Source: Alphaproteobacteria bacterium
GTDB lineage: Bacteria; Pseudomonadota; Alphaproteobacteria; JACAEB01
Assembly (NCBI GenBank): GCA_013389075.1
Contig: JACAEB010000217.1
Location: 1,981 to 65,980, forward strand
Reading direction: 5' to 3'
DNA length: 64,000 nt
Below, in pieces: positions 8,777 to 53,500 of the stretch. The position numbers and the translations under genes were made by a program. The first letter of the stretch is position 1. Each line of letters opens with the position of its first letter. The notes under the pieces are model-generated. The model searched no databases. It was not told where the DNA came from and was given only the letters and a program-made list of their open reading frames with translations.

Positions 8777-9303
8777 ATGCCCCCCCGGGTCCGGCGCCGT
8801 TCGGCGAGGAGGGCCTCGAAGCGGGCCTCATCCTCCCGCGTGAGGACGAAGCGGCGGAAACCGAAGACATAAAGACCCACGAGGATCAGAGCCGAACTCC
8901 ACACCCCGTAGATCATCCAGGCGCTGGGCGTCGGAAACCCGAGGAAGAAGGAGGTCTCGCTGCTCTGAAGATAGTGCCGATAGCTCGTATTGATCTGTAT
9001 CCAGACGAAGAGCGCGAGGCCCGCATAGAGGAGAAGGCCCGCCCAGAAGCCTTTCGAGCGCAGACGCCTTGGCACGCTCATGACCACGAGAAGCCCCACG
9101 AAGCCGATGGTCAGGCATTGCAGGAGGAACCCCGCAAAGGCGATCGGCTCCCACCGCGCGGCACCGTCGCCGCCGATGCGCATGCCCGCTATCTCGGGGG
9201 GGCCGGCGCCGGCCGAGCCGGCGATCTCGGGGGTCAGAAGTGCCATGGCAAGCAGCCCGGCAATGCCGAGCAGCAGGGCCAGCACCAGGAGGCCGCTTCG
9301 CAT
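8773..9303 (-). CDS. Small membrane protein; putative SSS-symporter small subunit (DUF4212-like)
   Basis: 176 aa with two TM segments, start MRSGLL preceded by GGGAGAGGG. Translationally coupled to the symporter. Confidence 0.6.
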   Translation of the reverse strand: MRSGLLVLALLLGIAGLLAMALLTPEIAGSAGAGPPEIAGMRIGGDGAARWEPIAFAGFLLQCLTIGFVGLLVVMSVPRRLRSKGFWAGLLLYAGLALFVWIQINTSYRHYLQSSETSFFLGFPTPSAWMIYGVWSSALILVGLYVFGFRRFVLTREDEARFEALLAERRRTRGGM

Positions 9304-9542
9304 ATCCCTCTCCCTCGCCGCGCCTCGTCTTGTCTGGGCCTCGCCGTCGCGCGGCTGCCGGTCTGCCCCAGAGGTTTCAACGCGGCAGCCCGTCCGTCGC
9401 CGACGCGGACCAGCCCGCGCGCCCGGTGGCCTCTCCACCTGCGGATGTATACGATATTCGTCGATTCCGGCCCCTGGCCCTGTGGCTTGCCACGGGCCCG
9501 CGCTCGTTATGCTTGCTGCTTCGCGCGCAGCGAGGAGCAAGA

Positions 9543-11366
9543 GTGATCGCGACGGAAGCGGGACAGCGGAACGCTTATGCGACCCAGTATCACTTCGGAA
9601 CGGCGCCCCTCGCCGCCCTCCGGCATGGACGGGTCCTTGGGCTGCGCTATGATCGCCTGGAAGCTTCGATCCTGGAGGCGATTCGGGACCCCATGGCGGC
9701 CGATCTCATGCCTGTTCCCACAGCCCGACCACGGGTCACGATCGTCATGACGCCCCGTGAGCGCTTCACGCTGACGGAACGGGCGATTGATGCCGTTCGC
9801 GCCTCCACGGCGGTCCCGTTCCGCTTCATCTTCGCCTTCGCCGATCTGCCGGACTGGCTCGCGCCACGGCTCCGGCAGAGGGCGGACAAGGGTGAGATCG
9901 AGCTGCGCCAGGTTCGGGATGCCGCCTGGCCGAATCAGATCCGCATGGCGATCGCCGCTGATCTCGATACGGACTATGTCGTTTTCCTCGACAATGACGT
10001 CGTCCCCGAACCGGGATGGCTCGAGGCGCTGCTCGCCTGCGCGGACGAAACGGGCGCGGGCATCGTCGCGCCCCTCTATCTCTGGAGCGATGGAACCGGA
10101 CCCTCCGGGCGCATCCACATGGCCGGCGGGCGGCTGACCTGGATCGAGGGGCCGGACGGCTCCTCGCTGCGCGAGGAACACGCCCACATGAACGAGGAGG
10201 CCGAGGAGCTTGGCTCCGCCCTCTCCCGTCGCCCCTGCGATTTCGGCGAATATCACTGCCTGATGATCCGGGGCGATCTCGTCCGTTCCGGGATCGTCTT
10301 TCACGAACGAATCAATGCCCTCCACGAACATATTCACGCCTCGCTCGCCGCGCGCGAGCGCGGCCTTGCGACCTGGCTCGAGCCGGCCGCCCGGGTGACC
10401 TATCTCGCCTTCGCGCCCTACACGCTGCGCGATCTCGCCTATTACAGCCACCGGTGGAGCGCCGATGGCGGGGAGGAGAGCATCGCCGCCTTCGCCGAGC
10501 GCTGGGGCGTCCAGGACGACGAGATCTCCTTCGGAGGCGTCCGCCGCTTCCTTGCGCGCCATCGGGAGGATGTGACGCTGCTGCGCGCGGATGCCCCGGC
10601 CGGGCAGCTTGCCCGCACGATGCGCCCGGAGGATCTGGCACAGTCCCGCGCGCGCCTCCTCGACCAGGCGGCCGAGGCGGGATATCCACCCGCCGCCATC
10701 GCGGGTCTCGGCCGGGCCTGCCTCGCGGCCGCCTCGCTCCTCGATGGAGCCTACCGGGCCTGCGGGCGCCCCTTCCTGAACCACCTCGTGGGAACGGCGA
10801 GCGTCCTCCTCTTCTACCGCCTCCGCATCCAGACGGTTCTGGGTGGCCTGTTTCATGCCACCTTCACCCATGCGCCGACCATGACCACCGATCCGCAGAG
10901 CCAGCTCGCGCTCGTGACACAGGCGCTGGGCGGACCGGAGAAGACCCTCTCTCGCCTCGTCCACAGCTACGCGACACGGCGCCATCGCTGGAAAGCCCTT
11001 CCGGCGGGACCGAAAGCGCTCGAGGACCTGTCGCTGCTGGATGCCGAGGTCCTTGTGATCGCGGCGGCCAATGAAGCCGAGATGTGGCTGAGCGGGGAGC
11101 TCCGCCACGCTCCGGCCGGCCGCGAGATGACACGGCCGGTCGAGACGCTCGCAAAGGAAGCGCTCGCGACGATCGGCCTGCCCGGCCTGTCCCTCCTCCT
11201 GACCCAGATCGCCGCGACCCCGCCCGCCCCCGCGCCGGCCGGCACGGCCATCGGCGCCCCGGCCGCCTTCATGTTCCGCAGCGGCGCCCTCGTGCCCGTT
11301 CCCAATCCGCTGGCGCTCGTGACCAAGGCGTCATTGAGCCATCCGACCCGCTCGGCGGCCCGCTGA
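9543..11366 (+). CDS. Glycosyltransferase family 2 fused to a C-terminal degenerate HD (SpoT/Mesh1-like) domain
   Basis: GT2 core (PRVTIVMTP…FLDNDVVPEPGWLEAL). C-terminal region GRPFLNHLVGTASVLL…LGGLFHATFTH…DAEVLVIAAANEAEM aligns with the HD-domain pattern (PYI-H-PL…LLHD…IKLADRLHNM), with catalytic D/H replaced. GTG start sits 5 nt after GAGGAG. Confidence 0.65.
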   Translation: MIATEAGQRNAYATQYHFGTAPLAALRHGRVLGLRYDRLEASILEAIRDPMAADLMPVPTARPRVTIVMTPRERFTLTERAIDAVRASTAVPFRFIFAFADLPDWLAPRLRQRADKGEIELRQVRDAAWPNQIRMAIAADLDTDYVVFLDNDVVPEPGWLEALLACADETGAGIVAPLYLWSDGTGPSGRIHMAGGRLTWIEGPDGSSLREEHAHMNEEAEELGSALSRRPCDFGEYHCLMIRGDLVRSGIVFHERINALHEHIHASLAARERGLATWLEPAARVTYLAFAPYTLRDLAYYSHRWSADGGEESIAAFAERWGVQDDEISFGGVRRFLARHREDVTLLRADAPAGQLARTMRPEDLAQSRARLLDQAAEAGYPPAAIAGLGRACLAAASLLDGAYRACGRPFLNHLVGTASVLLFYRLRIQTVLGGLFHATFTHAPTMTTDPQSQLALVTQALGGPEKTLSRLVHSYATRRHRWKALPAGPKALEDLSLLDAEVLVIAAANEAEMWLSGELRHAPAGREMTRPVETLAKEALATIGLPGLSLLLTQIAATPPAPAPAGTAIGAPAAFMFRSGALVPVPNPLALVTKASLSHPTRSAAR

Positions 11367-14683: not shown

Positions 14684-15853
14684 CTACGGAACAGTGGATC
14701 CGGGCGGCGAGACCGAACCCGCACCATTGCCATGGCGATGGGCTTCCGCTTCGGCGCGTCCGGCGTCGATCGCCTCCTCGCCGACGCGGCGCGCCTTTTC
14801 GACGACCGAGTTCGCGGCCCGGGCGGCGTCCTCCGGCGTCAGGCCCTCGCGACGAGCCGCTTCCGAGGCGGCCTCGCCCATCCGCCCGGCCACGTCGCCC
14901 GCCGTCGTCGCCGCATCGCGGGCCGCCCCTCGCGCGGCCTCCCGGAGCTCGCTGCCGGTCTCTCCGAGCCAGCGATCTTCCGTCCGCGTGCGCGGAAGCA
15001 GGCTGCCCAGAAGAGCGCCGAGGGCAACGCCGACGGCGCCCACGACGAGCGGATGATCGTCATAGTACTGACTTGCCTGGTGCCCGAGGGCGCGGGCGCG
15101 ATCAGCGCCCGCATGCGCGGCGTGCCGGGCGCCGTCCCTCGTGCCGTGCCAGAGCCGGGCCCCCTGGGCGGCGATCCTGTGACGGGCGCGGCTCGCCCGC
15201 TCCGAAAGCGATTCGAACGCGTGGTCGACCCGCTCCCGGAAGGCGTGGACTTCTTCTTCCGCGCTCTTCTTGAGCCCGAGCGCGCCGGCCTTGGCCTCGG
15301 CAAGGCGCTCGCTGAAGCGATCCGCCATCTCGCCCGTCTCCTGGCGGACGCCGGACAAGGTCCGGTGGACGCGGTCATGATGTTCGACCGCTTCCAGATC
15401 ATCCGGATCGAGAGGTTCTTCGCGGTAATAGGCACCGTGATATCCGCGCGCGAAGCCGGTATCGCCCGATGCCGGCGTGGGGCCGATGGTCTCGTGGGGC
15501 GAGACGCCGCCCGCATCGTGCCGGGGCATGGTGGGCGCGAAGGCATTCGCGCTTCCCGATCCCGCGAACGCACCATTGCCCGAATGGCCAGCGCCCGTCC
15601 GATGACGCGCGTCCGACATCATCAGCCAGGCGACACCTGTCACCACGAGGGCGAGCGGGAGCGGATCGGCCTTCACCCGACGCGCAATGTTCTCGCCGAA
15701 CTCGGCGCCTTCCTGCCGCGCAAGGCCCAACGCCCGGTCGAGCAGCTCGCCGGGGCTGATACGATCCTTCAACGCCTCGATGGTTTCGTCCATCTCGGCG
15801 CGCGTCCCGCGGATCTCGCCTTCGAGTTCGGCGGATCGTGCATGTGCGCTCAT
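14684..15853 (-). CDS. DUF3618 domain-containing stress protein (membrane-anchored)
   Basis: N-terminal DUF3618-like coiled region (SAELEGEIRGTRAEMDETIEALKDRISPGELLD) with a TM segment. Ends at TAG. Confidence 0.7.
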   Translation of the reverse strand: MSAHARSAELEGEIRGTRAEMDETIEALKDRISPGELLDRALGLARQEGAEFGENIARRVKADPLPLALVVTGVAWLMMSDARHRTGAGHSGNGAFAGSGSANAFAPTMPRHDAGGVSPHETIGPTPASGDTGFARGYHGAYYREEPLDPDDLEAVEHHDRVHRTLSGVRQETGEMADRFSERLAEAKAGALGLKKSAEEEVHAFRERVDHAFESLSERASRARHRIAAQGARLWHGTRDGARHAAHAGADRARALGHQASQYYDDHPLVVGAVGVALGALLGSLLPRTRTEDRWLGETGSELREAARGAARDAATTAGDVAGRMGEAASEAARREGLTPEDAARAANSVVEKARRVGEEAIDAGRAEAEAHRHGNGAGSVSPPGSTVP

Positions 15854-16275
15854 TTCATCTTTTCCTTTGCGAATTTGGCGTCATCCCGGACCGTCTGGAC
15901 GGTGCGACCGGGAATGAGGTTGTAGGCGGACAGTTCCGAGCGGCCGCGCAGAACCAGCGCCAGACCGATCACGGCGACGACGCCCACGATGATTGCGGCC
16001 AGCCAGGCGGGCATCGCGCGCGCCAGGCCGTAGACGACGGCATCGAGCAGAACGATCAGCGCCGCGAGCGAGAGGATCAGGCCCGTGGCCAGCGACACGA
16101 TGCCGCCCATGACATCGCCGGCCTTCTCCGACATCTCGGCGCGCGCAAGCGCGATCTCCTGACGGAACAGCGTGCTCAGCTGTCCGACGAGGTCGCGCAG
16201 GAGCGCCCCGATGGACCTTGGGTCTTCGCGGCCATCCCTCGCATTGAGGTGGACATCGTGCGGAATATCGCTCAT
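15850..16275 (-). CDS. Phage holin family / DUF1469-like membrane protein of general-stress clusters
   Basis: 141 aa with two TM segments. RBS GGAGGAGG. ATGA-type overlap with neighbours. Confidence 0.7.
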   Translation of the reverse strand: MSDIPHDVHLNARDGREDPRSIGALLRDLVGQLSTLFRQEIALARAEMSEKAGDVMGGIVSLATGLILSLAALIVLLDAVVYGLARAMPAWLAAIIVGVVAVIGLALVLRGRSELSAYNLIPGRTVQTVRDDAKFAKEKMK

Positions 16276-16811
16276 GGCAGGCCTCCTCCTGTCTCGTCCA
16301 GTCCGGTCGGATCGGCATAGGGCGTATACGGATCGGTGTCGCGCGTCCGGCCGGCCGCTTGGCCCGCACGGGCCAGCCGGCTGAGAGCAAGGCCGAGAGC
16401 CACCGATCCGCCCAGAAACAGGGCTGGCTGGTGTCGCGCGAAATCGCTGACCTCATGCGAGAGCGCGCTCATGTTCTGTGACCGGATGTGTTCCGATGCC
16501 TGATCCACTCTGCGCGCCGCCTGCTCGGCGGCGTTCGAAATCAGGCGATCCCGGTCCTTCAACACATCGGCGGAGGCCCTGAGGCCGGCGGCGAGCGCGT
16601 CGAAATGACCGGCGATGGCGCGTTTGCCCTGCTCGGCGGCATTGCCGGCCTCGGCGCGCAGTCCCTCCGTCACCTCGTCGACCGCCTCGCGCGCGCTCTG
16701 CCGCAGAGCCTTCGGCGCTTCCCGCAGCTTCTCGACGGTTTCCTCCGTCCGGGCCGGACCGGGCTCGCCGGTCCCGGCGCCTTGGGGATGGTCGGATGGG
16801 CTTTCGGACAT
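16272..16811 (-). CDS. DUF883 (ElaB/YqjD-like) stress protein with C-terminal TM anchor
   Basis: 179 aa. Coiled N-terminus and C-terminal PALFLGGSVALGLALSRLA. RBS GAGGAGG. Confidence 0.7.
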   Translation of the reverse strand: MSESPSDHPQGAGTGEPGPARTEETVEKLREAPKALRQSAREAVDEVTEGLRAEAGNAAEQGKRAIAGHFDALAAGLRASADVLKDRDRLISNAAEQAARRVDQASEHIRSQNMSALSHEVSDFARHQPALFLGGSVALGLALSRLARAGQAAGRTRDTDPYTPYADPTGLDETGGGLP

Positions 16812-16854
16812 TACGGGCCTCCTCTTGTTGGTCGTGTGGCTCCCGGCGCGCCGG

Positions 16855-17298
16855 TCAGTCGGCCTTCAGGGACTGATAGTGAGCGCCCATTTCCTCGGCC
16901 TTCTTCTCGTCGATGACCTCCTGCGCCTGCGGAAACATCTCATCCTCCTCGTCGGAGATGTGATGCTCGAGCGCCTCCTTCAGCTCCCGGATCTTCTCGA
17001 TGAACTCGTCGGAGGTCTTGTCCATCGCCGAAAGCTCATCGAGCATGGTTTTCGCTTCCTCATGCTCGCTCAGCGCATCGCGAACTTCCTCGCGCGCCTC
17101 GCTGTCGGCCTTCTCCTTGCGGAACTGCGGATAGAACTCCTCCTCCTCGAAGCGCGTATGCACCTCGAGATCGGCCTTGATCTCCTCGAACAGCTTCTCG
17201 CGTGTCCGCTCCGCGCCGTCGGAGCTGTCCAGAATCTTGGACAGCGCAGAGGTCACCTTCTCGTGATCATCGTGCAGCATCTTGTAGATGGTCGGCAT
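16855..17298 (-). CDS. Hemerythrin HHE cation-binding domain protein
   Basis: H…HxxxE and HxxxxE spacing (MLHDDHEKV…EVHTRFEEEEFYP…LEHHISDEEDEMFP). Start at the second ATG, 6 nt after AAGGAG. Confidence 0.8.
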   Translation of the reverse strand: MPTIYKMLHDDHEKVTSALSKILDSSDGAERTREKLFEEIKADLEVHTRFEEEEFYPQFRKEKADSEAREEVRDALSEHEEAKTMLDELSAMDKTSDEFIEKIRELKEALEHHISDEEDEMFPQAQEVIDEKKAEEMGAHYQSLKAD

Positions 17299-17343
17299 GT
17301 GCATCTCCTTCAGCGGGCGGACGGCCACACGGCTTCCTGCCCT

Positions 17344-17391: not shown

Positions 17392-17416
17392 GGAACAGCG
17401 GGGCTCCTTGCGCGTT
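17392..17416 (+). promoter_or_regulatory. EcfG (general stress response sigma)-type promoter GGAAC-N16-CGTT upstream of ku
   Basis: GGAAC at 17392-96, 16-nt spacer, CGTT at 17413-16. ku GTG at 17455. Confidence 0.5.
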
Positions 17417-17454
17417 TTTCCGGATCGGGCGGAGCATCGAGGAGCAAGCAAGCT

Positions 17455-18321
17455 GTGGCGGCACGCGCCTATTGGAGTGGCTATCTGCGCCTGTCCCTGG
17501 TGACGATCGGCGTGGAACTCTATTCGGCCGTCACCACACAGGCGGCGCTGCCGCTTCACCAGATCCACCGGCCATCGGGCCGGAGGGTGCGGTATGAGAA
17601 GGTGGTGCCCGGACTTGGTCCCGTGCCCTCCAAGGAGATCGTGAAGGGCTACGAGATCGAACGCGACGACTACGTCCTGCTCGAGCCGGACGATCTCGAC
17701 GCCATCAAGCTCGAGAGCCGGCGCGCCATCGATCTCGTCCAGTTCGTCGGACATGACGAGATCGACCCCCGCTACTTCGAAAAGCCCTATTACGTCGTGC
17801 CGCGCGACGGCGAGGCGGCGGAAGGATTCGCCGTCATCCGCGAGGCATAGCGCGCGGAGCGAAAGGCCGGTCTGGGGCAGATGGCCGTGCGCGGACGGGA
17901 TGCGATCGTCGCCATCAAGCCCTGCGGCAGGGGGCTGCTTCTCGAAACGCTGCGGTATGCGGACGAGATCCGCGCCAGCGACCGCATCTTCGCCGACATC
18001 GAGGATCAGGAGATCGCTCCGGACATGCTGGCGCTCGCCCGCGAGCTGATCGGGCGCAAGACCTCTCCCTTCAAGCCCGAGGCGTTTCGCTCGCACTATG
18101 CCGAAGCCCTTCGGGAGCTGATCGAGACGCGGCGCCGGAGCGGCACGATCACCGCGCCGCGCGAGGATGCGGCGAGCGACCGGTCGAACGTCGTCGACCT
18201 CATGGAGGCGCTGAAGAAGAGTCTGGCGACCGGCAAGTCCGAGGGGCCGGGCAAACCGACACGTCAGCCGTCTCCCGCCAAGGGCAAGGGACGCAGCCCC
18301 CGCAAGCGGGCGAGCGGATGA
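17455..18321 (+). pseudogene. ku: Ku protein (NHEJ) interrupted by a single in-frame TAG at 17848..17850
   Basis: Two same-frame ORFs (17455..17850 and 17881..18321) together give a colinear ~289-aa Ku: MAARAYWSGYLRLSLVT…AVIREA[TAG]RAERKAGLGQMAVRGRDAIVAIKP…LETLRYADEIR. Confidence 0.75.
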
Positions 18322-18325
18322 GGCC

Positions 18326-20689
18326 ATGGCAGGCAGCACCGACGATCCGCTGACGATCTATCGGGCGAAGCGCGACTTCGCGCGGACCCCGGAGCCCTCG
18401 GGCAGTGGCGAGAAGCGCCGCGGCGGGCCGCCGGTGTTCGTGGTTCAGGAGCACCGTGCGCGGCGGCTCCACTACGATCTGCGCCTCGAACTCGACGGCG
18501 TCCTCAAGAGCTGGGCGGTGACGCGCGCGCCCGATCTTCCGCCTGCGGGCAAGCGCCTCGCCATCCGGACGGAGGATCACCCGCTCTCCTATGCCCGCTT
18601 CGAGGGAGAGATACCGGAAGGCTATGGCGCGGGAGAGGTACGCATCTGGGATCACGGCACCTGGACGCCGACATCGGATGCGGCGAAGGGGCTGTCCGAC
18701 GGTCATCTCGGGTTCCGGCTCGATGGCCAGCGACTGACCGGCCGCTTCGCGCTCGTCCGTATCGAGACGGACAAGCGCGGCAAGGAGAGCTGGCTCCTCG
18801 TCCGCCCGCGAAAGGACACGAACAGGGCCGCCGGCCCGCCCGCCTTCGTCCCCCCGCAGCTCGCGAGCCTTGCGGAAACTCCGCCCGAAGGGGCGGACTG
18901 GGTTCACGAGATCAAGTTCGACGGCTACCGCATCCAGGCGCAGCTTGGCGGCGAGGCGCCGCGTCTCTTCACGCGAAGCGGCAGGGACTGGACGGATCGC
19001 TATCCCTCGATCGTGAACGCGCTCGCGGAGGTGCGGGCCGAGAGTGCCCTGATCGACGGCGAGCTCGTAGCGCTCGACCCGGGCGGCCAGACCCGGTTCG
19101 ACTATCTTCAGTCACAGGACGATGCAGCCGAGCTCGTCTATTACGCCTTCGACCTCCTCTTCCTCGACGGCGAGGATCTGCGCACGCGCAGCCTGCGGGA
19201 CCGCAAGGCCGCGCTCCTGCGGATCCTGCCCCGAAATGCACGGCGCCTGCGCCTGAGCGAGGATCATGCCGGCCCGGGGGGCGCCGTTCTGGCGGCCGCC
19301 TGCCGGATGGGCCTTGAGGGCATCGTCTCCAAGCGGGCGAGCGCCCCCTATCGCTCCGGGCGCGGAGAGGACTGGCGGAAATCGAAATGCGTCGGCCGGG
19401 ACGAGTTCGTGATCGTGGGCTACCGGCGCTCGACGGTTCCGGGCAAGGCCTTCGCCTCCCTCCTCCTCGCCGCGCGGAAGGGAGGCGCGCTCGCCTATTG
19501 CGGGCGAGTGGGGACGGGCTTCGACGAGCGGGAGGCGGAGCGGCTGGCAGAACGCATGGCGCGGCTGGTGCGGACCCAGCCCGCCCTCCCCGTCCCCGCC
19601 GACGCGCGCCGCGAGGCGGTGTGGCTGTCCCCTCGCCTCGTGGCGGAGATCGGGTACACGGAGTATACGGCCGACGGGCGTCTGCGCCATCCGCGCTTTC
19701 TCGGCCTGCGCGAGGACAAGCCTGCCGAGGAGGTCGACATGCCACCTGCCCGCCCCGGCTTGCCCGAAGGTCCGTCCGCTCCCGGAGCGCAGACGGTCGC
19801 CGGCGTCCGGCCCACCCATCCGGACCGGCTCCTCTATCCGGGCCAGGGCCTGACGAAACGTCAGCTTGCCGAGTACTATCTCGCTCGCGCGGACGACATC
19901 CTGCCCCATCTCGCCGGCCGCCCCCTCAGCCTCGTGCGCTGTCCGCGCGGGGAAGGCGAACCCTGCTTCTTCCAGAAACATCACACGGCCTCGACACCGG
20001 ACTCCCTCGACAGCCTCGCCATCACCGAAGGGTCGGGGACAAAGGCCAGCTATCTCGTCATCCGCACGCTCGAGGGTCTCGTGGCGACGGCGCAGATGGG
20101 CGCGCTCGAGCTGCATGTCTGGGGTGCGCGCCGCGACCGGATCGAAGCGCCCGAACGGATCGTCTTCGATCTCGATCCGGCCCCTGACCTTCCGTTCACC
20201 GAGGTGAAGTTCGCGGCCGTCGAGCTGCGGGCCGTTCTGGAGACGCTGGACCTCGTCTCGTTTCCGCTCCTGACCGGCGGCAAGGGCATCCATGTCGTGG
20301 TGCCGATCGCCCGACGCTCGGGCTGGCCGGAGGTGAAGGCGTTCGCGCGCGGCCTCGCCCGGCGTCTTGCCGCCGTGGCCCCCGAACGCTATCTCGCGAC
20401 GGCCTCCAAGGCCGAGCGCGCCGGGCGGATCTTCATCGACTGGATGCGCAACGAAAGGGGCGCCACCGCCATCTGCCCGTTCTCGCCCCGCGCCCGCCCC
20501 GGGGCGCCGGTCGCGACGCCGGTATCGTGGTCCGAGCTGCCGGAGCTCGACAGCGCCTCGGCCTTCACGATCCTCACCCTGCGCCAGCGGCTCTCCCGCC
20601 TTCGCCGCGATCCGTGGGCGGATTATTTTTCGACCCGGCAGTACCTGACCACATCGCGTATCGCCGCCGTCACGAAGGCCCGGCCATGA
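18326..20689 (+). CDS. ligD: ATP-dependent DNA ligase LigD, multidomain (phosphoesterase - ligase - polymerase/primase)
   Basis: N-terminal PE domain (VFVVQEHRARRLHYDLRLE), ligase KxDG motif (EIKFDGYR) and C-terminal Prim-Pol domain. Starts 5 nt after ku. Confidence 0.9.
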   Translation: MAGSTDDPLTIYRAKRDFARTPEPSGSGEKRRGGPPVFVVQEHRARRLHYDLRLELDGVLKSWAVTRAPDLPPAGKRLAIRTEDHPLSYARFEGEIPEGYGAGEVRIWDHGTWTPTSDAAKGLSDGHLGFRLDGQRLTGRFALVRIETDKRGKESWLLVRPRKDTNRAAGPPAFVPPQLASLAETPPEGADWVHEIKFDGYRIQAQLGGEAPRLFTRSGRDWTDRYPSIVNALAEVRAESALIDGELVALDPGGQTRFDYLQSQDDAAELVYYAFDLLFLDGEDLRTRSLRDRKAALLRILPRNARRLRLSEDHAGPGGAVLAAACRMGLEGIVSKRASAPYRSGRGEDWRKSKCVGRDEFVIVGYRRSTVPGKAFASLLLAARKGGALAYCGRVGTGFDEREAERLAERMARLVRTQPALPVPADARREAVWLSPRLVAEIGYTEYTADGRLRHPRFLGLREDKPAEEVDMPPARPGLPEGPSAPGAQTVAGVRPTHPDRLLYPGQGLTKRQLAEYYLARADDILPHLAGRPLSLVRCPRGEGEPCFFQKHHTASTPDSLDSLAITEGSGTKASYLVIRTLEGLVATAQMGALELHVWGARRDRIEAPERIVFDLDPAPDLPFTEVKFAAVELRAVLETLDLVSFPLLTGGKGIHVVVPIARRSGWPEVKAFARGLARRLAAVAPERYLATASKAERAGRIFIDWMRNERGATAICPFSPRARPGAPVATPVSWSELPELDSASAFTILTLRQRLSRLRRDPWADYFSTRQYLTTSRIAAVTKARP

Positions 20690-22083: not shown

Positions 22084-22407
22084 TCAGAGAGCTTCCCGGG
22101 CGGCCGGACAATACAGCTCGTAGAGGAGACGGACCACCGCCTCCGCCTCCGGGCTCGCCAGCCGGTAATGGATGACCTGTCCCGCACGCCGTGACGCCAC
22201 GAGCCCCTCGCGCCTGAGGAGCCCGAGCTGCTGCGACATCGCCGCCTGGCGCATGCCGAGGCGCTTGGCGAGCGCGCCGACGCTGAGTTCGCCCTCGGCC
22301 AGATGACACAGGATCCTGAGCCGTCCCGGATGGGACAGGCTCGCCATCAGGGCGACGGCACGCTCGGACGCCGCTTCCATCACCGACATGTCCATCTCAA
22401 TATTCAT
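22084..22407 (-). CDS. ArsR-family 2-Cys persulfide-sensing repressor (BigR/SqrR type)
   Basis: wHTH (LRILCHLAEGELSVGALAKRLGMRQAAMSQQL) with Cys in ILCHL and LYCPA, matching the BigR/SqrR Cys pair. Divergent from the blh operon. Start codon chosen at the predicted TSS (leaderless), so uncertain by a few codons. Confidence 0.7.
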   Translation of the reverse strand: MNIEMDMSVMEAASERAVALMASLSHPGRLRILCHLAEGELSVGALAKRLGMRQAAMSQQLGLLRREGLVASRRAGQVIHYRLASPEAEAVVRLLYELYCPAAREAL

Positions 22408-22414
22408 GCTTGCG

Positions 22415-22443
22415 CATATACGAATGTTTGCATATATTGTCAA
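22415..22443 (-). promoter_or_regulatory. Near-consensus sigma70 promoter TTGACA-N17-TATATG for the ArsR/BigR gene; overlapping imperfect inverted/direct repeats form the likely operator
   Basis: Minus-strand TTGACAATATATGCAAACATTCGTATATG. AT-rich island in a 70% GC genome. ATG 22407 lies ~7 nt after the -10, which predicts a leaderless mRNA. Confidence 0.55.
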
Positions 22444-22489
22444 CTGGCGGGAGCGGTCTGCCGCTCCCATCCCGTTCAAGGAGGCCGGC

Positions 22490-23353
22490 ATGAAGCCCGA
22501 GGTCACATCCTTCTTCGACGAGGCGACCTACACGATCACCCATGTGGTCGCCGATCCGAAGACACGGCGGGCGGCCATCATCGATCCGGTGCTCGACTAC
22601 GACCCGAAGTCGGGCCGGACCGCCACCCGCTCGGCGGACCGCGTCATCGCCCATGTCCGAGAGGCCGGTCTGACCATCGACTGGATCCTCGAAACCCATG
22701 CGCATGCAGATCATCTGAGCGCCGGTCCCTATCTAAAATCGGCACTGGGCGGAAAGACGGGCATCGGCGCGCACATCACCGATGTTCAGGAGGTGTTCGG
22801 CACGCTGTTCAACGCGGAGCCCGACTTTGCCCGCGACGGCTCCCAGTTCGACCAGCTGTTCGAGGACGGCGCACGCTTTGCGATCGGCGGTCTCGAGGCG
22901 CGCGTGATGCACACGCCCGGCCACACCCCGGCCTGCGTCACCTATGTCGTCGGCGACGCGGCCTTCGTGGGCGACACGCTCTTCATGCCCGACTATGGCA
23001 CGGCCCGCTGCGACTTTCCGCGCGGCGATGCCGCGACACTGTACCGGTCGATCCGCAGGATCTTCTCCCTCCCGGACGAGACGCGCCTCTTCCTCTGTCA
23101 CGACTACAAGGCCCCCGGGCGCGACAGCTATGTGTGGGAGACCACGGTCGGCGCGGAAAAGGCCGGCAACGTGCATGTGCATGAGGGGGTCAGCGAGGCC
23201 GAGTTCGTCGCCATGCGGACGGCCCGCGACCGCACGCTGGGAATGCCGGTTCTGCTTCTTCCCGCGGTGCAGGTGAACATGCGGGCGGGTGCCTTTCCTC
23301 CGCCCGAGGACAATGGGATCCGCTATCTGAAGATTCCGCTCGACGCCGTTTGA
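22490..23353 (+). CDS. blh: MBL-fold hydrolase Blh (persulfide dioxygenase / ETHE1-like)
   Basis: HxHxDH motif (ETHAHADHLSAG) plus downstream His/Asp ligands. RBS AAGGAGG. Genomic context is BigR-regulated. Confidence 0.8.
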   Translation: MKPEVTSFFDEATYTITHVVADPKTRRAAIIDPVLDYDPKSGRTATRSADRVIAHVREAGLTIDWILETHAHADHLSAGPYLKSALGGKTGIGAHITDVQEVFGTLFNAEPDFARDGSQFDQLFEDGARFAIGGLEARVMHTPGHTPACVTYVVGDAAFVGDTLFMPDYGTARCDFPRGDAATLYRSIRRIFSLPDETRLFLCHDYKAPGRDSYVWETTVGAEKAGNVHVHEGVSEAEFVAMRTARDRTLGMPVLLLPAVQVNMRAGAFPPPEDNGIRYLKIPLDAV

Positions 23354-23363
23354 GGATACGCAC

Positions 23364-23789
23364 ATGGAGAGCTTCGATCCTGTTACCGCCCTTGCAGGGG
23401 GCGCGCTGATCGGTCTTGCGGCCACGCTGCTGATGGCCGGGCTCGGCCGCATCGCCGGCGCGAGCGGCATCTTGATGGGTGTGCTCGCCCCGCCCGGCGG
23501 CGAGGCTCCCTGGCGGCTCGAATTCGTCGCGGGGCTCGTCGCCGCGCCCTTCCTCATGGCCCTGATGACCGGCGGTCTGCCCGAGATCCATGTGGAGGCC
23601 GGACTTCCCGCCCTGGCTGCCGCTGGTCTACTCGTCGGCATCGGAACCCAGATCGGGAGCGGCTGCACGAGCGGGCACGGTGTCTGCGGTCTTGCGCGCC
23701 TGTCGCCCCGCTCGCTGGTCGCGACGCCGGTCTTCATGGCCAGTTGCGCCCTGACCGTCTATGTCACGCGCCATCTGTTGGGAGGCTGA
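23364..23789 (+). CDS. YeeE/YedE family (DUF395) sulfur-compound transporter half
   Basis: 141 aa, 4 TM, conserved GSGCTSGHG motif. Confidence 0.75.
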   Translation: MESFDPVTALAGGALIGLAATLLMAGLGRIAGASGILMGVLAPPGGEAPWRLEFVAGLVAAPFLMALMTGGLPEIHVEAGLPALAAAGLLVGIGTQIGSGCTSGHGVCGLARLSPRSLVATPVFMASCALTVYVTRHLLGG

Positions 23790-23792
23790 TCA

Positions 23793-24269
23793 ATGCGCTC
23801 GCCCGCCTTCATCCGCGCCTGGTCGTTCGGCACCGGTCTTCTGTTCGGGCTCGGGCTCGTCCTCTCCGAGATGATCGACCCCGCCCGCGTGCTCGGCTTC
23901 TTCGACGTGGCCGGCACGTGGGACCCGACGCTCGGCTTCGTCATGGCCGGCGCGCTCGCCGTCACGGTGCCGGGCTATCGGCTCGTCCTGGCCCGCAAGG
24001 GGCCCCTCCTCGACACGCGCTTTCATCTGCCCACGCGCCACGATATCGACGCCCGCCTCGTCGGAGGCGCCGTTCTTTTCGGCATCGGCTGGGGCCTTGC
24101 GGGCTATTGCCCTGCGCCTGCCATGGCCTCTCTGGGCCTCGGCTCCGTGAAGGCGGCGGTCTTCCTCGCCTGCATGATCGTTGGTATGCTGATCTATCGG
24201 GCCTGGCTTTCTCCGGCGGCCCGGCAAAGGGGTCCTGCGTCCGGCGCTGCCGGGGGAGCGGCTTCGTGA
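23793..24269 (+). CDS. YeeE/YedE-family second half (DUF6691-like)
   Basis: 158 aa membrane protein with GYCPAPA motif, paired with the upstream half. Confidence 0.7.
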   Translation: MRSPAFIRAWSFGTGLLFGLGLVLSEMIDPARVLGFFDVAGTWDPTLGFVMAGALAVTVPGYRLVLARKGPLLDTRFHLPTRHDIDARLVGGAVLFGIGWGLAGYCPAPAMASLGLGSVKAAVFLACMIVGMLIYRAWLSPAARQRGPASGAAGGAAS

Positions 24270-26029
24270 GAGGCGAGCGCCTCCTCCCCGCGCTCGCCTG
24301 GCTGCGAGGCTATGGCCGTGAGGAGGCCCTCTCCGACACCATCGCCGCATCCATCGTGACGGTGATGCTGATCCCGCAGAGCCTTGCCTATGCCATGCTG
24401 GCGGGACTTCCGCCCGAGGTGGGCCTTTATGCCTCCATCGCGCCGCTGATCGCCTATGCCGCCTTCGGGTCGAGCCGCACGCTATCGGTCGGTCCCGTGG
24501 CGGTGATCTCGCTGATGACGGCCACGGCGACGGCAGAGGCGAGCGCGCGCACGGGGGCCGACCCGGTCGGCGTCGCCCTGGCGCTCGCCTTCCTGTCGGG
24601 GCTGTTTCTCGTCGGCATGGGGCTCCTGCGGCTCGGCTTTCTCGCCAATCTCCTCAGTCACCCGGTGATCTCGGGTTTCATCACCGCCTCGGCGATCCTC
24701 ATCACCGTGAGCCAGCTTCCCGCGCTGCTGGGACTGTCCGTATCCGGACACGGATTCCCCGAGCTCGTCGTCGCGATATCCGCTTCGCTGCCGGCCCTGC
24801 ACCTGCAAACACTCGCTCTGGGCCTCGCCGCCCTGGTGCTGCTCCTCCTCGCGCGGCAATATCTGCGCGGCACGCTCCGCCGTCTGAGGCTTTCCGCCAC
24901 CCTCGCCGATGGCCTTGCCCGGGCTGCGCCCATGGCGGTCGTGATCCTGTCCATTCTCGCCGTGCAGGGGCTCGACCTCGAGGCTGCGGGCGTGCGCACG
25001 GTCGGCACCATTCCGCCGGGCCTGCCCCCGCTCACACTCACCCTGCCCTCGTCCGCGCTTCTGCTCGAGCTCCTGCCGGCGGCCGTGCTCATCAGCGTGG
25101 TCGGTTTCGTGGAATCGGTCTCCGTCGCCCAGACGCTGGCGGCGCGTCAGCGTCAGCGGATCGATCCGAACCAGGAGCTTGTGGGCCTGGGCGCCGCCAA
25201 TCTCGCGGCCTCCGCCACGGGCGGCTTTCCGGTGACGGGCGGATTTGCCCGGTCGGTCGTCAATTTCGACGCCGGGGCCCGAACGCCCATGGCGGGCGTC
25301 CTCACGGCCCTCGGCATCGCCCTGACCGCGCTCGTGCTGACGCCGCTCTTCGCGGCGCTGCCGCGCGCGACCCTCGCCGCGACGATCATCGTCGCCGTGC
25401 TTTCTCTCGTCGACATCGGGGCGATCCGGCGCGCCTTCGCCTATTCACGGGTCGACTTCGCGGCCCAGGCCGGCACCATTGCCGTGACGCTCGCGGCAGG
25501 CGTCGAGCCCGGCATCCTCGCCGGCATCGTCCTGTCGCTGCTCCTGCACATCTGGCGGACCAGCCGACCCCATTATGCCATCGTGGGACAGGTTCCGGGG
25601 ACGGAGCATTTCCGCAACGTGCTGCGCCACGCGGTTCTGACGAGCCCGCACGTGCTCTCGATCCGGATCGACGAAAGCCTCTATTTCGCCAACGCCCGCT
25701 TCCTCGAGGATCTCATCGGAAGGCTCGTGGCCGAGCGCCCGCAGCTGCGCCACGTCGTCCTCATGTGCTCCGCCGTCAACCTCATCGACGCGAGCGCTCT
25801 CGAGAGCCTTGAGGCGATCAACGAACGCCTGCACTCGGCGGGCATCGATCTTCATCTGTCGGAGGTGAAGGGACCGGTCATGGACCGTCTCCGCCGGACG
25901 GATTTCCCCGGCCGCCTGACCGGCCGGGTGTTCCTGTCGCAATATGACGCGGTCCGCGCGCTCGATCCGGCGAGCCTCGGTCCCGCGCGGCCCGAAGGGG
26001 TCCGCGAGGGCGCGCCTCAGAGCGGATAG
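24266..26029 (+). CDS. SulP family anion permease with C-terminal STAS domain
   Basis: GTG start overlapping the upstream stop (GTGA). Sulfate-transporter N-terminus LRGYGREEALSD…PQSLAYAMLAGLPP. C-terminal STAS domain. Confidence 0.85.
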   Translation: MRGERLLPALAWLRGYGREEALSDTIAASIVTVMLIPQSLAYAMLAGLPPEVGLYASIAPLIAYAAFGSSRTLSVGPVAVISLMTATATAEASARTGADPVGVALALAFLSGLFLVGMGLLRLGFLANLLSHPVISGFITASAILITVSQLPALLGLSVSGHGFPELVVAISASLPALHLQTLALGLAALVLLLLARQYLRGTLRRLRLSATLADGLARAAPMAVVILSILAVQGLDLEAAGVRTVGTIPPGLPPLTLTLPSSALLLELLPAAVLISVVGFVESVSVAQTLAARQRQRIDPNQELVGLGAANLAASATGGFPVTGGFARSVVNFDAGARTPMAGVLTALGIALTALVLTPLFAALPRATLAATIIVAVLSLVDIGAIRRAFAYSRVDFAAQAGTIAVTLAAGVEPGILAGIVLSLLLHIWRTSRPHYAIVGQVPGTEHFRNVLRHAVLTSPHVLSIRIDESLYFANARFLEDLIGRLVAERPQLRHVVLMCSAVNLIDASALESLEAINERLHSAGIDLHLSEVKGPVMDRLRRTDFPGRLTGRVFLSQYDAVRALDPASLGPARPEGVREGAPQSG

Positions 26030-41901: not shown

Positions 41902-43263
41902 TCAGCGCGTGGGGGACAGGCCCTCGGGCCGGCCGACGGCGACGACGAGCAGCGCGGGATCGGCAAGCAGGCGCCGCGCGACCCGGGCGATGTCCTCCTG
42001 CGTCACCGCCTCGATGAGCTCGTTGCGGACATTGATGTAGCCGATGCCGAGATCGTCGATCTGGATGTCGAGGAGTTCGCGCGCGATCTTGGCGTTCGAA
42101 TCGAAGCGCAGCGGATAGGAACCGGTGAGATAGAGCTTGGCGCCCTCGAGCTCCTCCTCGCCCACGCCGGCCTCGCCCATGCGGGCGAACTCGGCGGCGA
42201 TGAGGCGGAGCGATTCGGCCGCACTCGCATTCTCCGTCCCCACACGGGCGATCAGCACGCCCGCATGCTTGAGCGCCACAAGACCGCTCGAGACGGAGTA
42301 GGCGAGCCCCCGCTTCTCACGGACCTCCTCCATCAGGCGTGAGGCGAAGCCCCCGCCGCCGAGCATGTAGTTCATGACGAAGGCCGGCACGAAGTCCGGA
42401 TCGTCACGCTTGATGCCGCGCGTGCCGACATAGGCGACCGTCTGCGGATTGTCGGCGAGATCGACGACGACCTCTCCGAGATTGCGCAGCTCGGCTTCGG
42501 GAATGGAGGGACGCGGCGCGCCCGCGGGCAGCTGGCCGAAGGTCGCGTCGATCAGCGCCGCAACGGCCTCGGCCTCGAGATTTCCGACCACGGAGATCTT
42601 GAGCCCCTCGCGCGTCAGCATGTCGGCGGCGAAGGCCTTGAGATCGGCCGGCGTGATGGCGGCGATGGACTGCGCCGTGCCGATGGTCGGCCGGCCATAG
42701 GGGTGATCGCCGAAGAGGGACTTGAAGAAGAGCAGCGAGGCCCGCTGGGCGGGGTCTTCCTCCGCCCGCGCGATCTGCACCAACAGCTGGCTGCGGATGC
42801 GCGAGATGGGCTCGGCGTCGAAGCGCGCCTTCGTCAGGGCGAGCGCCAGAAGCTCCGTCGCCAGATCGACATTGGTCGGCAGCGTGGTGAGCGTGACATA
42901 GGTGGCGTCGCGATCGGCCGAGAAGGACAGGCCGATCGAATTGTCCTCAAGCAGCGTGCGGAAGGCGAGGCTGTCATGAGGGCCGGCGCCCTCGTCGAGC
43001 AGAGCCGCGGTGAACACGGCGAGCCCTTCCCTGCCCGCCGGGTCGCGCGCCGACCCGTGGGGGAAGGCCGCCTCGACCACGATCACGGGAACGCTCTCCT
43101 CGCGCACCATCCAGGCCTCGAGCCCCATTGGCGTCGTGATCGCCTCGACCGGGACTGTCGTCTCGGCGGCCCGGGCGGGGGCTCCGGCCAGCGGCGCGAT
43201 GAGCGCGGCCGCCAGGGCCAGCGTCATCGCCCCCCGCCGGGTGAGTGCGGTGAGCGGGGTCAC
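41902..43263 (-). CDS. M16 family peptidase, non-catalytic (HxxEH-less) subunit, secreted
   Basis: Signal peptide, M16 fold without the zinc motif. ATGA-type overlap with the upstream M16 gene. Confidence 0.8.
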   Translation of the reverse strand: MTPLTALTRRGAMTLALAAALIAPLAGAPARAAETTVPVEAITTPMGLEAWMVREESVPVIVVEAAFPHGSARDPAGREGLAVFTAALLDEGAGPHDSLAFRTLLEDNSIGLSFSADRDATYVTLTTLPTNVDLATELLALALTKARFDAEPISRIRSQLLVQIARAEEDPAQRASLLFFKSLFGDHPYGRPTIGTAQSIAAITPADLKAFAADMLTREGLKISVVGNLEAEAVAALIDATFGQLPAGAPRPSIPEAELRNLGEVVVDLADNPQTVAYVGTRGIKRDDPDFVPAFVMNYMLGGGGFASRLMEEVREKRGLAYSVSSGLVALKHAGVLIARVGTENASAAESLRLIAAEFARMGEAGVGEEELEGAKLYLTGSYPLRFDSNAKIARELLDIQIDDLGIGYINVRNELIEAVTQEDIARVARRLLADPALLVVAVGRPEGLSPTR

Positions 43264-44681
43264 GGGCGGGCCTCCTCTGCGGGCGCGGGGCGCAGCGTTC
43301 CGGTCACGGAGCGATTGGGGACGAGGACCTTGCGCGCGGCCTCCATCACCGCCTCGGGGGTGACGCCGGCAAGGCGCACCGGCCAGGCTTCGATGTCCTC
43401 GAGCGTGCGGCCCGTGGTCAGCGCGGACCCGTAGAGGCGCGTCATGGCGTACTGGCTGTCCTTGGCGTAGAGCGCATCGGAGAGGATGCGCCGCTTGGCC
43501 GCGCGCACCTCCTCCTCGCTCACGCCATCGCTCAGAAGCGTGGCGATGACGCGGTCGATGCCCGCCTCCAGCGCTTCCAGCGACACGCCCTCGCGCGGCA
43601 GGGCCGAGATCGAGAAGCGCGTCGCGTTGAGCGCATCGACCCAGTACCAGGTGCCCGCCGTGGCGGCGAGCGCCTCGTCGATCACGAGCGCCTTGTAGAG
43701 CCGCGAGGTCGAGCGGGCCCCGAGAATGTCCTCGAGCACGACCAGCGCCTCGGCCTCGCCCGGCGCGGCGGTGGCGTAGCTGGGCGCGAGATAGCGCCGC
43801 TCGATCAGCGCGGTGCGGGCGCGGGCATCGACCATCTCCACCCGGCGGGCGGCATGGGGCTCCGGCTCGCTCGGGCGCACCCGCTCGGGCACGGGGCGGG
43901 CCTTGATGCGCCCATAGGTCCGCTCGGCGAGGGCGCGGACCTCGTCCGCCGCCACGTCGCCGGCGACGATCAGGATGGCGTTCGAGGGCGTGTAGTGGGC
44001 CTCGTAGAAGGCGATCGCATAGTCGCGCGAGAGCGCCCGCATCTCGTGCTCCCAGCCGATGATCGGGATGCCGTAGGGATGGTTGAGAAACAGCGCGGCG
44101 TCGATTTCCTCGTCGAGCTGGGCCTGCGGATCGTTGTCGACCCGCATGCTCCGCTCCTAGAGGATGACGGCGCGCTCGGGCACGATCACCTCGTCGGTGA
44201 GGACAAGACCGGTCATCCGGTCCGCCTCCATCTTCATGACGATGGGCAGGCGATCGACGGCGATCCGCTGGAAATAGGCCGTGTAGTCATAGGAGGTGAA
44301 GGCGTTGTCCTGGCCGCCATTGCGGGCGACGATCTTCGAGAACTCCCCGGGCTCCATGTCGCGCGTGCCCTTGAACATCAGATGCTCGAAGAAATGCGCG
44401 ATGCCGGAGCGGCCCCAGGGCTCGTCGGCCGCGCCTGTGCGGTACCACACCATGTGCGTGACCACCGGCATCCGGGGATCGGGGATGACCACGACCTGCA
44501 TGCCGTTGCGCAAGGTGAAGGTCTCGGCGCGCATCGCCTCCTGAAGCTCGCGCGCGAGCGCCTCGATCTCGGGGTCCGGCACCGCGGCGAGGGCGGGCCG
44601 CGGGGCGGCGCAGGCGATCGCCAGCGCAAAGGCGAGCCCGGCAAGCCAGGCCCGGCGGGGGGCGGAACTCAGTGGTGCCAT
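43260..44681 (-). pseudogene. M16 family zinc peptidase (HxxEH catalytic subunit) interrupted by a single in-frame TAG at 44157..44159
   Basis: N-part (44157..44681) carries [11 protein letters not shown]. The C-part (43260..44147) continues colinearly: …ERAVIL[TAG]ERSMRVDNDPQ…, equivalent to …VLEERRLRVDN… in intact homologues. Same reading frame. Confidence 0.75.
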
Positions 44682-50576: not shown

Positions 50577-53500
50577 TCATGGCGCGGCCTCGCGGCCCCG
50601 CTCGATCAGGTCCTGCACCCGGAAGCCCACCGTTCCCTCCCGCAGGAGTTCGGCGAAGGCGCCGCTCGTGCGGATGCGAATCTTGAAGGGATAGCCGTCA
50701 TAGACGGACGGATTGGCCCCCAGCAGCTCGACCCCCACATCGAGCCGGCCATCCACCGCCCCGTCGAGCGTCAGCGCCAGCTCCTCCCATTCGAAGTTAT
50801 CAAGGGCGCGGAACAAAAGCGAGGTTTGTTCGTTGCCGGCCTCCGCCGCCGCCGCGCCCTCGCCCCTGTAGGACAGGATGCCCCCGGGCGGGCTGCGTCC
50901 CGTGAGGCGGCCATCGACGATGCGGGCGCCGTCCGGCCTCACCACCACCGGCACCCGGCCATCGAGACGGCCGCTCCCGCTCAGCCCCGGCAGACGCAGG
51001 AGCGGCAGCACCTCGGCAAGATCGAGCCCGTCGGCCCGGAAGACCACGTCCCGCTCGACCGTGTCCGGCGCGAAGGAGAGGCGCGCATCGCGCACGCCAA
51101 CCTCGCCCCCCGCGAAGGGCCAGATCGCCCTGTCGAGGGCCAGCATCGCGTCGGGCTCGAGGGCGAAGACGATCTCGCCGTTCTCGAGCGGCACCGGCCC
51201 GTCGATCCGCGCGACCCGGGCCGTCTGGAGGCCCTCGGTCAGCGGCGGCAGGAGGCTCTTCAGCCGAATGTCCGCATCGAGACCTTCGACCGGCGCGAGA
51301 TAGGAGAGGAACTCGATGCCCGCAAGGCTGAACGCGCCGCGCGTCGAAAGCCGCCCGCCGCCCCAGTCGGCATGGGCCGAGCCCCCCGCCCGGCCCGCGA
51401 CCTCCGCCACGAGGCCGCGCAAGGCAGGCACGAGCGTCTGAGGCTGGAGCCCGTTCGGGGTGAAGACGAGATCAGCGAGGGTGATGTCGGCGGCGCCCTT
51501 GCCCGTTTTGAGCGCGTGACGTCCCGAGAAGTCCCCGAGCCTGCGCCCCTCCGCCTCCAGCGTGCCGGAGAAGCGGGCCTGCCCCGCCTCGATCTGCGCC
51601 GTGCCGGCGGCGAGCACGGGCGCATAGCGGGCGGGCCGTGCGAGGTCGGCGACGCCGAGGCGCGGGACGGTCAGCGTGCCGGAGAGGATGGCGCTGCCCG
51701 TGCCCGACAGGGTGGCCGTCAGGGCGAGCGGGCTCAGCACGGCAAGATCGGGCAGCGCCCGCATCTGCCCGCCCTCGGTCTCGAAGGCGAGCTGCCAGGT
51801 CTCCGCCTCCGGCGCATAGGAGAGCGCGAACCGGGTCTCCGGCAGGGTCCCCTCGAGCGCCGGCAGGCCCTTGGCATCGGGCGGACCCTCGAGCCGCACG
51901 CCGCGCGCGGGCAGCGCGCCGGCGAGAACCAGCGCCGGCCGGTCGTCCGCCTGCGGCGCGAAGCTGAGGAAGGGCACGGCATCGCCCCGGTCGCAGAGCG
52001 AGAAACCCTCCGGTCCCGGATGGATGGCGATTTCCGCAAAATCGATGCGCCTCGCCCGGAGCGTGCCGCACGGCCCCTCTCCCGAGCCGAGCCGCAGCGC
52101 GAAGGCCTCCGGCTCGCGTGTGAAGCTCGCCGGCAGGACGAGGGCCGTATCGGCCAGCGTGAGCCAGGAGAAAAAGGCCCCGTCGGCCTCGGCGTCGATG
52201 GCGACCTGCCCGGCGTAACGCTGCGGCGTTCCGCGGGCGGAGAGGCCGAAGGCGCGCGGCGCCAGCGAGAGGCCGCCTGCCCGCCACGGGCCGCCCTCGA
52301 GGGCGAGCCGGTCGAGCGCGAAGCGCTCGACGCGGAGCGCGCCGTTCTCGCCCACCGGGGCAAGGCTGAGCGCGGCATCGAGTTCGGCCGTGAGCGTCAC
52401 CGGATCCGCCCGCCGCAGCACGAGCGCGGCGCCCGCGCGCACGGATGCCTCCGCGCCGTCCGCATCGAGCCTCAGCGCGAGGCCGCCCTGCTCGGGATCG
52501 ACATAGGTCCCCACGGGCAGCCCGGCCCTCTCCGGCGCCGCCTCCCCGCCCGGCTCCCAGACGAGCGAGAGGAAGGCGCCCTCGGCGGACGCCGTCTCGG
52601 GAGCCAGAACGGCGACCCCCGTGCTCCGCCAACCCTCTTCGCCGCCGTGGGAGACATCGGCGTCGAGCACGAGGCGGGCGCCCCCGCCGAGCGCGCCGAA
52701 GGCGCCGAGGAGATCGTCCCGGAAGGGACGGACCGCATCGAGCTCGAGCGCGGCCCGCGTCGAGGGCGCGAGCGTCCCGAGCGCGCGATCGAAGACCGGC
52801 GGCGGCAGCGACAGCGCCGTCACGTCGAGGCGGACATGACCCGACCCGTTCGCCCCTGCCCCGTCATACCGGGCGGAAAGGACCGCCTCCCCCGCCGCAG
52901 CCTCCGCGAGGGCGAGATCGGCGAGACGCGCCGTGACCGCCCCCTCGAGGCGCCCGCGCGTGAGGCGCATCTCGCCCGTGAGCGCGGCGAGCGAAAAGCG
53001 CTCCGACAAAGGCTCCGTCCCCGGACGATCGAGATCGAGGTCGAGATCGAGCACGCCCTCGCGTATGCGCACGGTCGCGGTTCCGGCGATGGAGCGCTCG
53101 GGCGCGCCGCCACGCGCGATGACGAGGTCGGGACTCGCACCGAGGCCGCCCTCCCCGTCGGGCGCCAGCGCGCCGTCGAGCCGGATCGTGAACGGACCGT
53201 CGGGTGTCTCGAGGTCGAGTTCGGCCTCGCGCAGGGTGATGGGCGGCAGGCTGGCGGGATCAAATCCCGCGCCCCCGCCTCCGCCCGCCGGCAGGGGCAG
53301 CACCAGGCCCGCGCCCGCGCTGTCGAGACGTGCGCCAAGGCGCAGCCCGTCGATGCGGACGCTCCCGAGCCGGCCGCCGAGGAGACCGAGCGGGGTCCAG
53401 CCGATCTCGGCCCCGGCGAGCGACAGCGCACCGGGCGGGCCGAGAGAGCTCTCGCCGAGTCGCAGACCGAAGAGGCCTGCCCGCTCCACCGTGAGGCGCG

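Follow-up and report, generated by a model that had tools for sequence, protein, structure and literature searches.

A premature TAG at an invariant leucine splits ku within the ku-ligD operon of an uncultured alphaproteobacterium

The ku gene of an uncultured alphaproteobacterium from a 19 C sediment of Liard River is interrupted by an in-frame TAG directly upstream of an intact ligD. Among the relatives examined this stop is unique to the lineage, and it sits at an invariant site of a gene that is otherwise nearly intact. In our assessment the split most likely goes back to a recent nonsense mutation in ku, and the population that carries it is probably NHEJ-deficient. The analysis covered one stretch of 64 kb (64,000 nucleotides, the window) of a metagenome contig, and all coordinates given below are positions within it.

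One ku reading frame in two halves

Translation of positions 17455-18321 on the forward strand gives 131 codons, one stop and then 156 codons. The TAG at 17848-17850 shares its frame with the GTG at 17455 (393 nt before it), the ATG at 17881 and the final TGA (18319-18321), and the preliminary description, which spoke of a single in-frame TAG splitting ku, was right on this point. The GTG is backed as the start by a Shine-Dalgarno-like GAGGAG (17440..17445, forward strand, read from the sequence 9 nt 5' of the GTG) and by the N-terminus MAARAYW, which is the same in homologues. Along the forward strand, the N-terminal piece (codons 1-131, 17455..17847, with the GTG start) is followed by the stop, by ten in-frame and Ku-colinear codons (RAERKAGLGQ, 17851..17880) that would be translated only upon readthrough, and by the ORF of the C-terminal piece (146 aa plus stop, 17881..18321).

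The same description held that the halves are colinear, and the profile check that we have run bears this out. Without any repair, the N piece covers positions 1-128 of TIGR02772 and the C piece positions 141-259, while the Pfam profile PF02735 is matched from 2 to 126 before the stop and from 129 to 188 after it. When the stop is replaced by leucine, TIGR02772 (Ku_bact, an equivalog) gives a single match over its whole length (1-259 of 259, 282.8 bits with a cutoff of 150) and PF02735 gives 157.8 bits, uninterrupted over 2-188 of 190. The Leu-repaired protein is therefore a full-length and colinear member of the bacterial Ku family by its profile match. The gene as it stands does not hold the core and the C-terminal arm in one unbroken frame, the interruption being the TAG at codon 132, and the C-piece ORF alone reaches 100 bits with TIGR02772, under the cutoff of 150. 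This 3' ORF contains the remaining core, the conserved C-terminal motif NVVDLMEALKKS and a basic, Lys/Arg-rich tail; motif and tail align with those of homologues and are found in the C piece only. Two published reports describe the minimal C-terminal region and the basic tail of Ku as binding LigD and DNA (PMC9638933, PMC4889933). Frame and profile together show that each ORF is one half of the same Ku, in exact colinearity and with a single codon swapped for a stop, and the most likely reading of the 3' ORF of 146 codons is that of a remnant of ku and not of a separate gene. The 64-kb window was found to contain no second copy of ku or ligD.

The stop is present in the sampled DNA

The window belongs to an alphaproteobacterial MAG, obtained when nine metagenomes of sediments from Liard River Hot Springs were co-assembled with MegaHit (PMC8027834). 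An origin of the TAG in sequencing, assembly or consensus building, with a sense codon as the true state, had been left as an option by the preliminary description, and there are reasons to take it seriously: the window is a contig from a nine-library co-assembly, the authors themselves caution about the erroneous assembly of many MAGs, and one study and one platform stand behind all of the data. We have examined the Logan assemblies, which are made per run with a pipeline different from the co-assembly of the authors and which represent here two separate sediment libraries. The assembly of SRR10095374 (LIARD_Cool_Sed_1, 19 C) has a contig of 5,688 bp with 100% identity to the window, and that of SRR10095373 (LIARD_Cool_Sed_2, 19 C) has a contig of 3,060 bp with one SNP with respect to the window; the TAG is present in both. 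Two per-library assemblies and the co-assembly thus all carry the premature stop. Since the same TAG appears in the assemblies of two libraries, the stop belongs to the DNA of a population that was sampled twice.

Other observations speak against an artefact as well. The TAG lies within long unbroken contigs from the two samples, the change in ku is a substitution and not a homopolymer indel, and no high-identity protein spanning the ku stop site is found among 5.8 billion protein clusters (best, 77%). On this assembly-level evidence the ku TAG is real and not a consensus error, a sequencing or assembly error as its origin is largely excluded, and we regard a true sense codon at this position as extremely improbable.

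The records at NCBI have a bearing on the same question. The LigD of this contig (82.5 kb in full) is recorded as NWG47294.1, "MAG: DNA ligase D [Alphaproteobacteria bacterium]", and neither Ku piece is recorded along with it. The missing Ku pieces are consistent with the annotation pipeline having flagged a pseudogene.

The interrupted codon is an invariant leucine

In order to place the stop within the family, we have used an alignment of the 120 best database homologues of ku (57-68% identity) and a set of 80 related ku loci from GTDB species-representative genomes (48-63% identity), among which the source MAG is not included. The column of the stop is leucine in all 120 homologues and in all 80 loci, in agreement with the earlier claim that homologues have a sense codon here. 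None of the 80 related loci has an internal stop in ku, and the two stops reported there by tblastn are the natural C-terminal ends of the proteins. The premature TAG (17848..17850, forward strand) would then have replaced Leu132, by our inference through a change of TTG to TAG, with T>A at 17849. The codon TTG is rare in the usage of this genome (18 of 1,166 leucine codons), but it stands at precisely this position in 16 of the 80 relatives, which makes an origin in a single T>A step plausible. The site therefore presents a conserved sense codon, one substitution away from the stop, and a stop that is absent from relatives, as expected of a nonsense pseudogene.

The codon directly 5' of the TAG is GCA, a rare alanine codon (57 of 1,572), where 73 of the 80 relatives have GCG or GCC. 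The string GCA TAG at 17845-17850 could maybe reflect more than one change. A two-step origin of the stop, suggested by the rarity of TTG together with GCA, was considered and set aside in view of the TTG found here in 16 of the 80 relatives.

We have also looked for an intact allele or a sister strain with the repaired Ku and with a 222-aa probe across both stop sites (that of ku and that of a second split gene, see below), and found none among the 5.8 billion protein clusters, where identity did not exceed 77%. The nearest relative of ku itself in these clusters has 68% identity.

Structural position of the break and a Ku made in two pieces

The position of the break was mapped by sequence alignment to solved structures of bacterial Ku (9vnq, 8v53 and 9i91). 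For a homologue (P0005) an AF2 monomer was modelled as well, but its quality was too low (pLDDT 43.5) for use in a fold search. By this alignment the break appears to fall at the end of helix alpha2 (in the naming of the Bacillus subtilis Ku). The dimer interface of the Ku of Mycobacterium tuberculosis is made of a bridge (residues 23-91), a pillar helix and a sling (residues 167-227) (PMC12784962), and by alignment to this protein the N piece contains the beta-hairpins of the bridge, residues 23-91.

A break at this point invites the question of whether the two pieces, one of 131 aa and another of 146 aa re-initiated at the ATG at 17881, could assemble into a functional, non-covalent ring. 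The end of a helix, as a boundary between interface elements, might be a permissive place for a split, to the extent that a low-confidence structure model allows it to be judged, and conserved sequence is retained in both pieces. Furthermore, the ATG lies 30 nt past the stop, within range for post-termination re-initiation, which in bacteria does occur at such distances. The preliminary description had seen in it a start of the C piece's own. The ATG is indeed there, and no in-frame ATG, GTG or TTG precedes it after the stop, but its role as a start finds no support. Its methionine is conserved in 108 of the 120 homologues, so that it is an internal residue of Ku rather than a new start, and the ATG must predate the stop. 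Neither is it preceded by a usable, well-spaced Shine-Dalgarno sequence (GGAG, AAAGG and GGGG are found 21, 14 and 3 nt upstream, respectively). A protein re-initiated here would lack ten residues, the invariant L140, G141 and Q142 among them, and a SNP is segregating at an invariant residue, Ala143, whose codon would directly follow the start of the putative C piece. Finally, not one split was found in the 80 related loci or in the 120 homologues, and the arrangement has consequently not been selected anywhere else. A functional Ku in two pieces is, all this considered, highly improbable, and a deliberately two-piece Ku finds no support in these sequences.

Translation through the stop and a second split gene

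Readthrough of the TAG, partial or complete and owing to either an amber-suppressor tRNA or leaky termination, would allow the cell to go on making full-length Ku. What gives some substance to this idea is a second gene of the window in the same condition, to which it would equally apply. We have scanned every stop in the window with 60 stop-free codons on both sides and a coding-type GC3. Eight sites were obtained, of which six are ordinary gene junctions according to Pfam, leaving as split genes only ku and an M16 (pitrilysin/insulinase) peptidase with an HFFEH motif (43260-44681, reverse strand, stop at 44157-44159). In the latter the TAG cuts the Peptidase_M16 domain at position 110 of 149 of the profile, and the frame runs on into Peptidase_M16_C. 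The residue replaced is a glutamate that is invariant in 120 of 120 homologues (GAG>TAG, with G>T at 44159, ERAVIL before the stop and ERSMRV after it), the remainder of the gene is intact, and so is the gene of the partner M16 subunit (41902-43263). A second assembly for the TAG of the peptidase was sought, and the nearest Logan contig ends about 800 bp short of it; neither piece of this protein is on record.

In-frame TAGs in two conserved and otherwise intact genes among the approximately 50 of the window, both nearly free of other lesions, are what tolerance of the codon would produce. The ku TAG is in addition followed by C, and a C after the stop makes a weaker termination context in Escherichia coli. 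Against this, the residues replaced are different, leucine in ku and glutamate in the peptidase, and hence no single suppressor would restore both genes. TAG is also the terminator of about 18% of those ORFs of the window that are long and coding-like, for example those of an aldehyde dehydrogenase and of a cyclase-family gene, and efficient suppression would fuse the aldehyde dehydrogenase to an acyl-CoA dehydrogenase that follows in the same frame 3 nt on. No tRNA with a CUA anticodon is encoded in the 64-kb window, where the sole tRNA is Ser(CGA), and a search for Rfam recoding elements in the window returned the tRNA only. The 120 nt past the ku stop were checked for RNA structure and show less of it than shuffled controls do (z = +1.34). 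With the stop absent from 80 of 80 relatives, no RNA element and no CUA tRNA in the window, the marks of programmed readthrough or recoding are missing from this locus. Moreover, 66% of the one-step nonsense mutations possible under this codon usage give TAG, and that both stops are TAG is thus expected by chance (p ~0.44).

Along the same lines, a reassignment or general suppression of the codon was rejected as a candidate, six of the eight scanned stops being normal junctions and TAG an ordinary terminator in the window. We consider it unlikely that the TAG is read through and that full-length Ku, and the M16 peptidase likewise, are still produced. A broader alternative, in which Ku function persists either by tolerance of in-frame TAG (a suppressor tRNA or leaky UAG) or by a non-covalent two-piece Ku arising from re-initiation, appears very unlikely from the evidence of this section and the preceding one. 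Natural amber suppression would be indicated, and the observation would gain in significance, if in-frame TAGs were numerous at conserved positions of the whole genome. Two nonsense-split genes among some 50 exceed the expectation for a typical free-living bacterium and may indicate a pseudogene load that is higher than usual.

Age of the mutation and signs of decay

A recent nonsense mutation remains the reading that we strongly favour among those initially put forward: the leucine is invariant, the stop is absent from relatives and little else in ku is damaged. The last of these points can be quantified. Of 83 columns with a conservation of 97% or more among homologues, ku departs from the consensus in three, by the stop, by the deletion of one residue (Val) and by a conservative substitution, K226R. 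Intact homologues have at the same 83 columns a median of 0 deviations with a 95th percentile of 3. The gene, being otherwise nearly undamaged and within the range of intact homologues, thus points to a recent event.

The missing valine lies near codons 120-121 (17812-17820), where the sequence reads RDGE-AAEGF as opposed to DDEVAAEGF. The deleted position is Val in 118 of 120 close homologues and Ile in the other two, and its loss may be either a lineage-specific change in the length of a loop or a second in-frame lesion. The SNP mentioned above, at 17884 on the forward strand, has G in the window and T in SRR10095373 (Ala143Ser). Located 34 nt past the stop, it is the only site within 3,060 bp at which the assemblies of the two libraries differ, and Ala143 is invariant in 120 of 120 homologues. 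As a single observation it gives a weak hint of relaxed constraint. Apart from the stop, the marks of relaxed constraint in ku are therefore the Val deletion, K226R and this one segregating SNP, as seen from a nearest relative with only 68% identity. With so little further decay, the gene may still function through some rescue route.

The operon and its surroundings

Downstream of the broken gene, ligD (787 aa, 18326..20689, forward strand) is intact. The preliminary description gave it three domains, which our searches bear out: the single ORF carries the PE, ligase and polymerase domains, with Pfam matches to LigD_N, DNA_ligase_A_M, DNA_ligase_A_C and LigD_Prim-Pol, and passes the cutoffs of TIGR02776 (630.7 bits, cutoff 373.2) and NF004628 (919.3 bits, cutoff 895). 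The motifs KFDG, DLD and HYDLRLE are seen in its translation. The spacing has to be corrected, since 4 nt (18322-18325), and not 5, separate the stop of ku from the ATG of ligD. The second gene is probably translationally coupled to the first.

Upstream, a GGAAC-N16-CGTT motif of the EcfG/RpoE2 type (17392..17416, forward strand) lies 38 nt upstream of the start of ku. The window contains three occurrences of GGAAC-N16/17-CGTT where 0.7 are expected, and 3 of 100 shuffles attain this number. In Sinorhizobium meliloti ku3-ku4 and ligD4 are governed by RpoE2, and EcfG boxes are found before ku genes of alpha-proteobacteria (PMC6379672). We regard the motif as a probable, still putative, general-stress-response promoter of ku-ligD. 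Another occurrence (53778-53803, forward strand) is located about 115 nt upstream of the gene of EipA (envelope integrity protein A, 53918-54535), and the third (50810-50834, forward strand) is inside a gene of the opposite strand and is probably there by chance.

Divergent from ku there is a cluster of small, stress-type genes (14684-17328, reverse strand) that code for a hemerythrin (16855-17328), a 179-aa protein with no Pfam match, a membrane protein of the Phage_holin_3_6 family (15850-16275) and a DUF3618 protein (14684-15853), all of them on the reverse strand. On the 3' side ligD is followed by genes of Pmp3, DUF4112 and pirin. The GC content shows no anomaly across the ku-ligD locus.

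Further on, at 22084-26029, a sulfur-related cluster ends with a SulP/STAS sulfate permease. It includes a small putative regulator ORF that we take to be ArsR-like, and an ORF (22388-23353) that presumably encodes an MBL-fold protein. Two YeeE/YedE-type ORFs (Sulf_transp and DUF6691) are adjacent and in the same frame, with a TGA between them in what is apparently a normal junction. At the other side of ku, between 8.8 and 13.5 kb, the coding signature is weaker than elsewhere in the window. A 708-aa ORF there (9240-11366, forward strand) has just a short partial match to Glycos_transf_2 (profile 71-123 of 168) and may represent either a wrongly called frame or a gene in decay.

Proposed course of events and consequences

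The sequence of events that we propose starts with a leucine codon at position 132, most likely TTG, that would have become TAG by one T>A transversion, recently in evolutionary terms. Translation from the GTG would stop after 131 residues. The resulting fragment is predicted to keep the DNA-encircling hairpins of the bridge, whereas the sling would be missing, as would the entire C-terminal arm, through which LigD is recruited and stimulated. With the dimer interface of the sling and the C-terminal arm lost, no working Ku ring would be left to load LigD. Of the operon there would remain ligD, intact, and the probable stress-response promoter; the expression of ligD may nevertheless drop owing to the loss of translational coupling and to polarity. 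In this way the population would have become effectively LigD-only, at an early stage in the loss of NHEJ. The loss of Ku function, the recency of the event and the polarity on ligD are what we infer from the state of the locus.

For annotation, this means that the MAG should be scored as NHEJ-deficient (LigD-only) rather than as NHEJ-proficient, and that the 146-aa ORF should not be counted as a separate gene. From a wider perspective, the locus offers a natural snapshot of the loss of NHEJ at its first step, and it does so in a wild sediment population rather than in a laboratory strain.

Comparison with known systems

In most respects the locus is a canonical alphaproteobacterial ku-ligD operon. 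The order of the genes is the usual one, with about 76 of the 80 related genomes also having ligD right after ku. In its conceptual form Ku reaches full length and has the LigD-binding motif and the basic tail, and LigD has its three domains. The stress-sigma-type promoter motif before ku is also found in other alpha-proteobacteria (PMC6379672). The difference is that ku is here broken by a TAG at the invariant Leu132, a condition seen in no relative examined.

Adjacent ku ORFs within one operon, with a box of the EcfG/RpoE2 type, are also known from S. meliloti, in which Ku3 and Ku4 form a putative heterodimer (Dupuy et al., 2019, PMC6379672). Those are, however, two full-length paralogues, whereas the ORFs described here are the N- and C-terminal halves of one Ku (TIGR02772 profile 1-128 and 141-259). 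A two-gene Ku of the Ku3/Ku4 type was accordingly discarded as a candidate, since neither ORF spans the whole Ku profile and the stretches that they cover do not overlap.

A further parallel is found in genomes that have kept LigD only. NHEJ has been repeatedly gained and lost in bacteria, and LigD-only genomes are common (Sharda et al., 2020, PMC7719229). The population of the Liard River sediment shares with them the inactivation of one NHEJ component while ligD is kept. It differs in the stage that has been caught, apparently the first step, with a single nonsense codon in a gene that is still there, seen at the level of a population and in two samples. The split ku is most likely an ordinary young pseudogene, the first step of the frequent loss of NHEJ.
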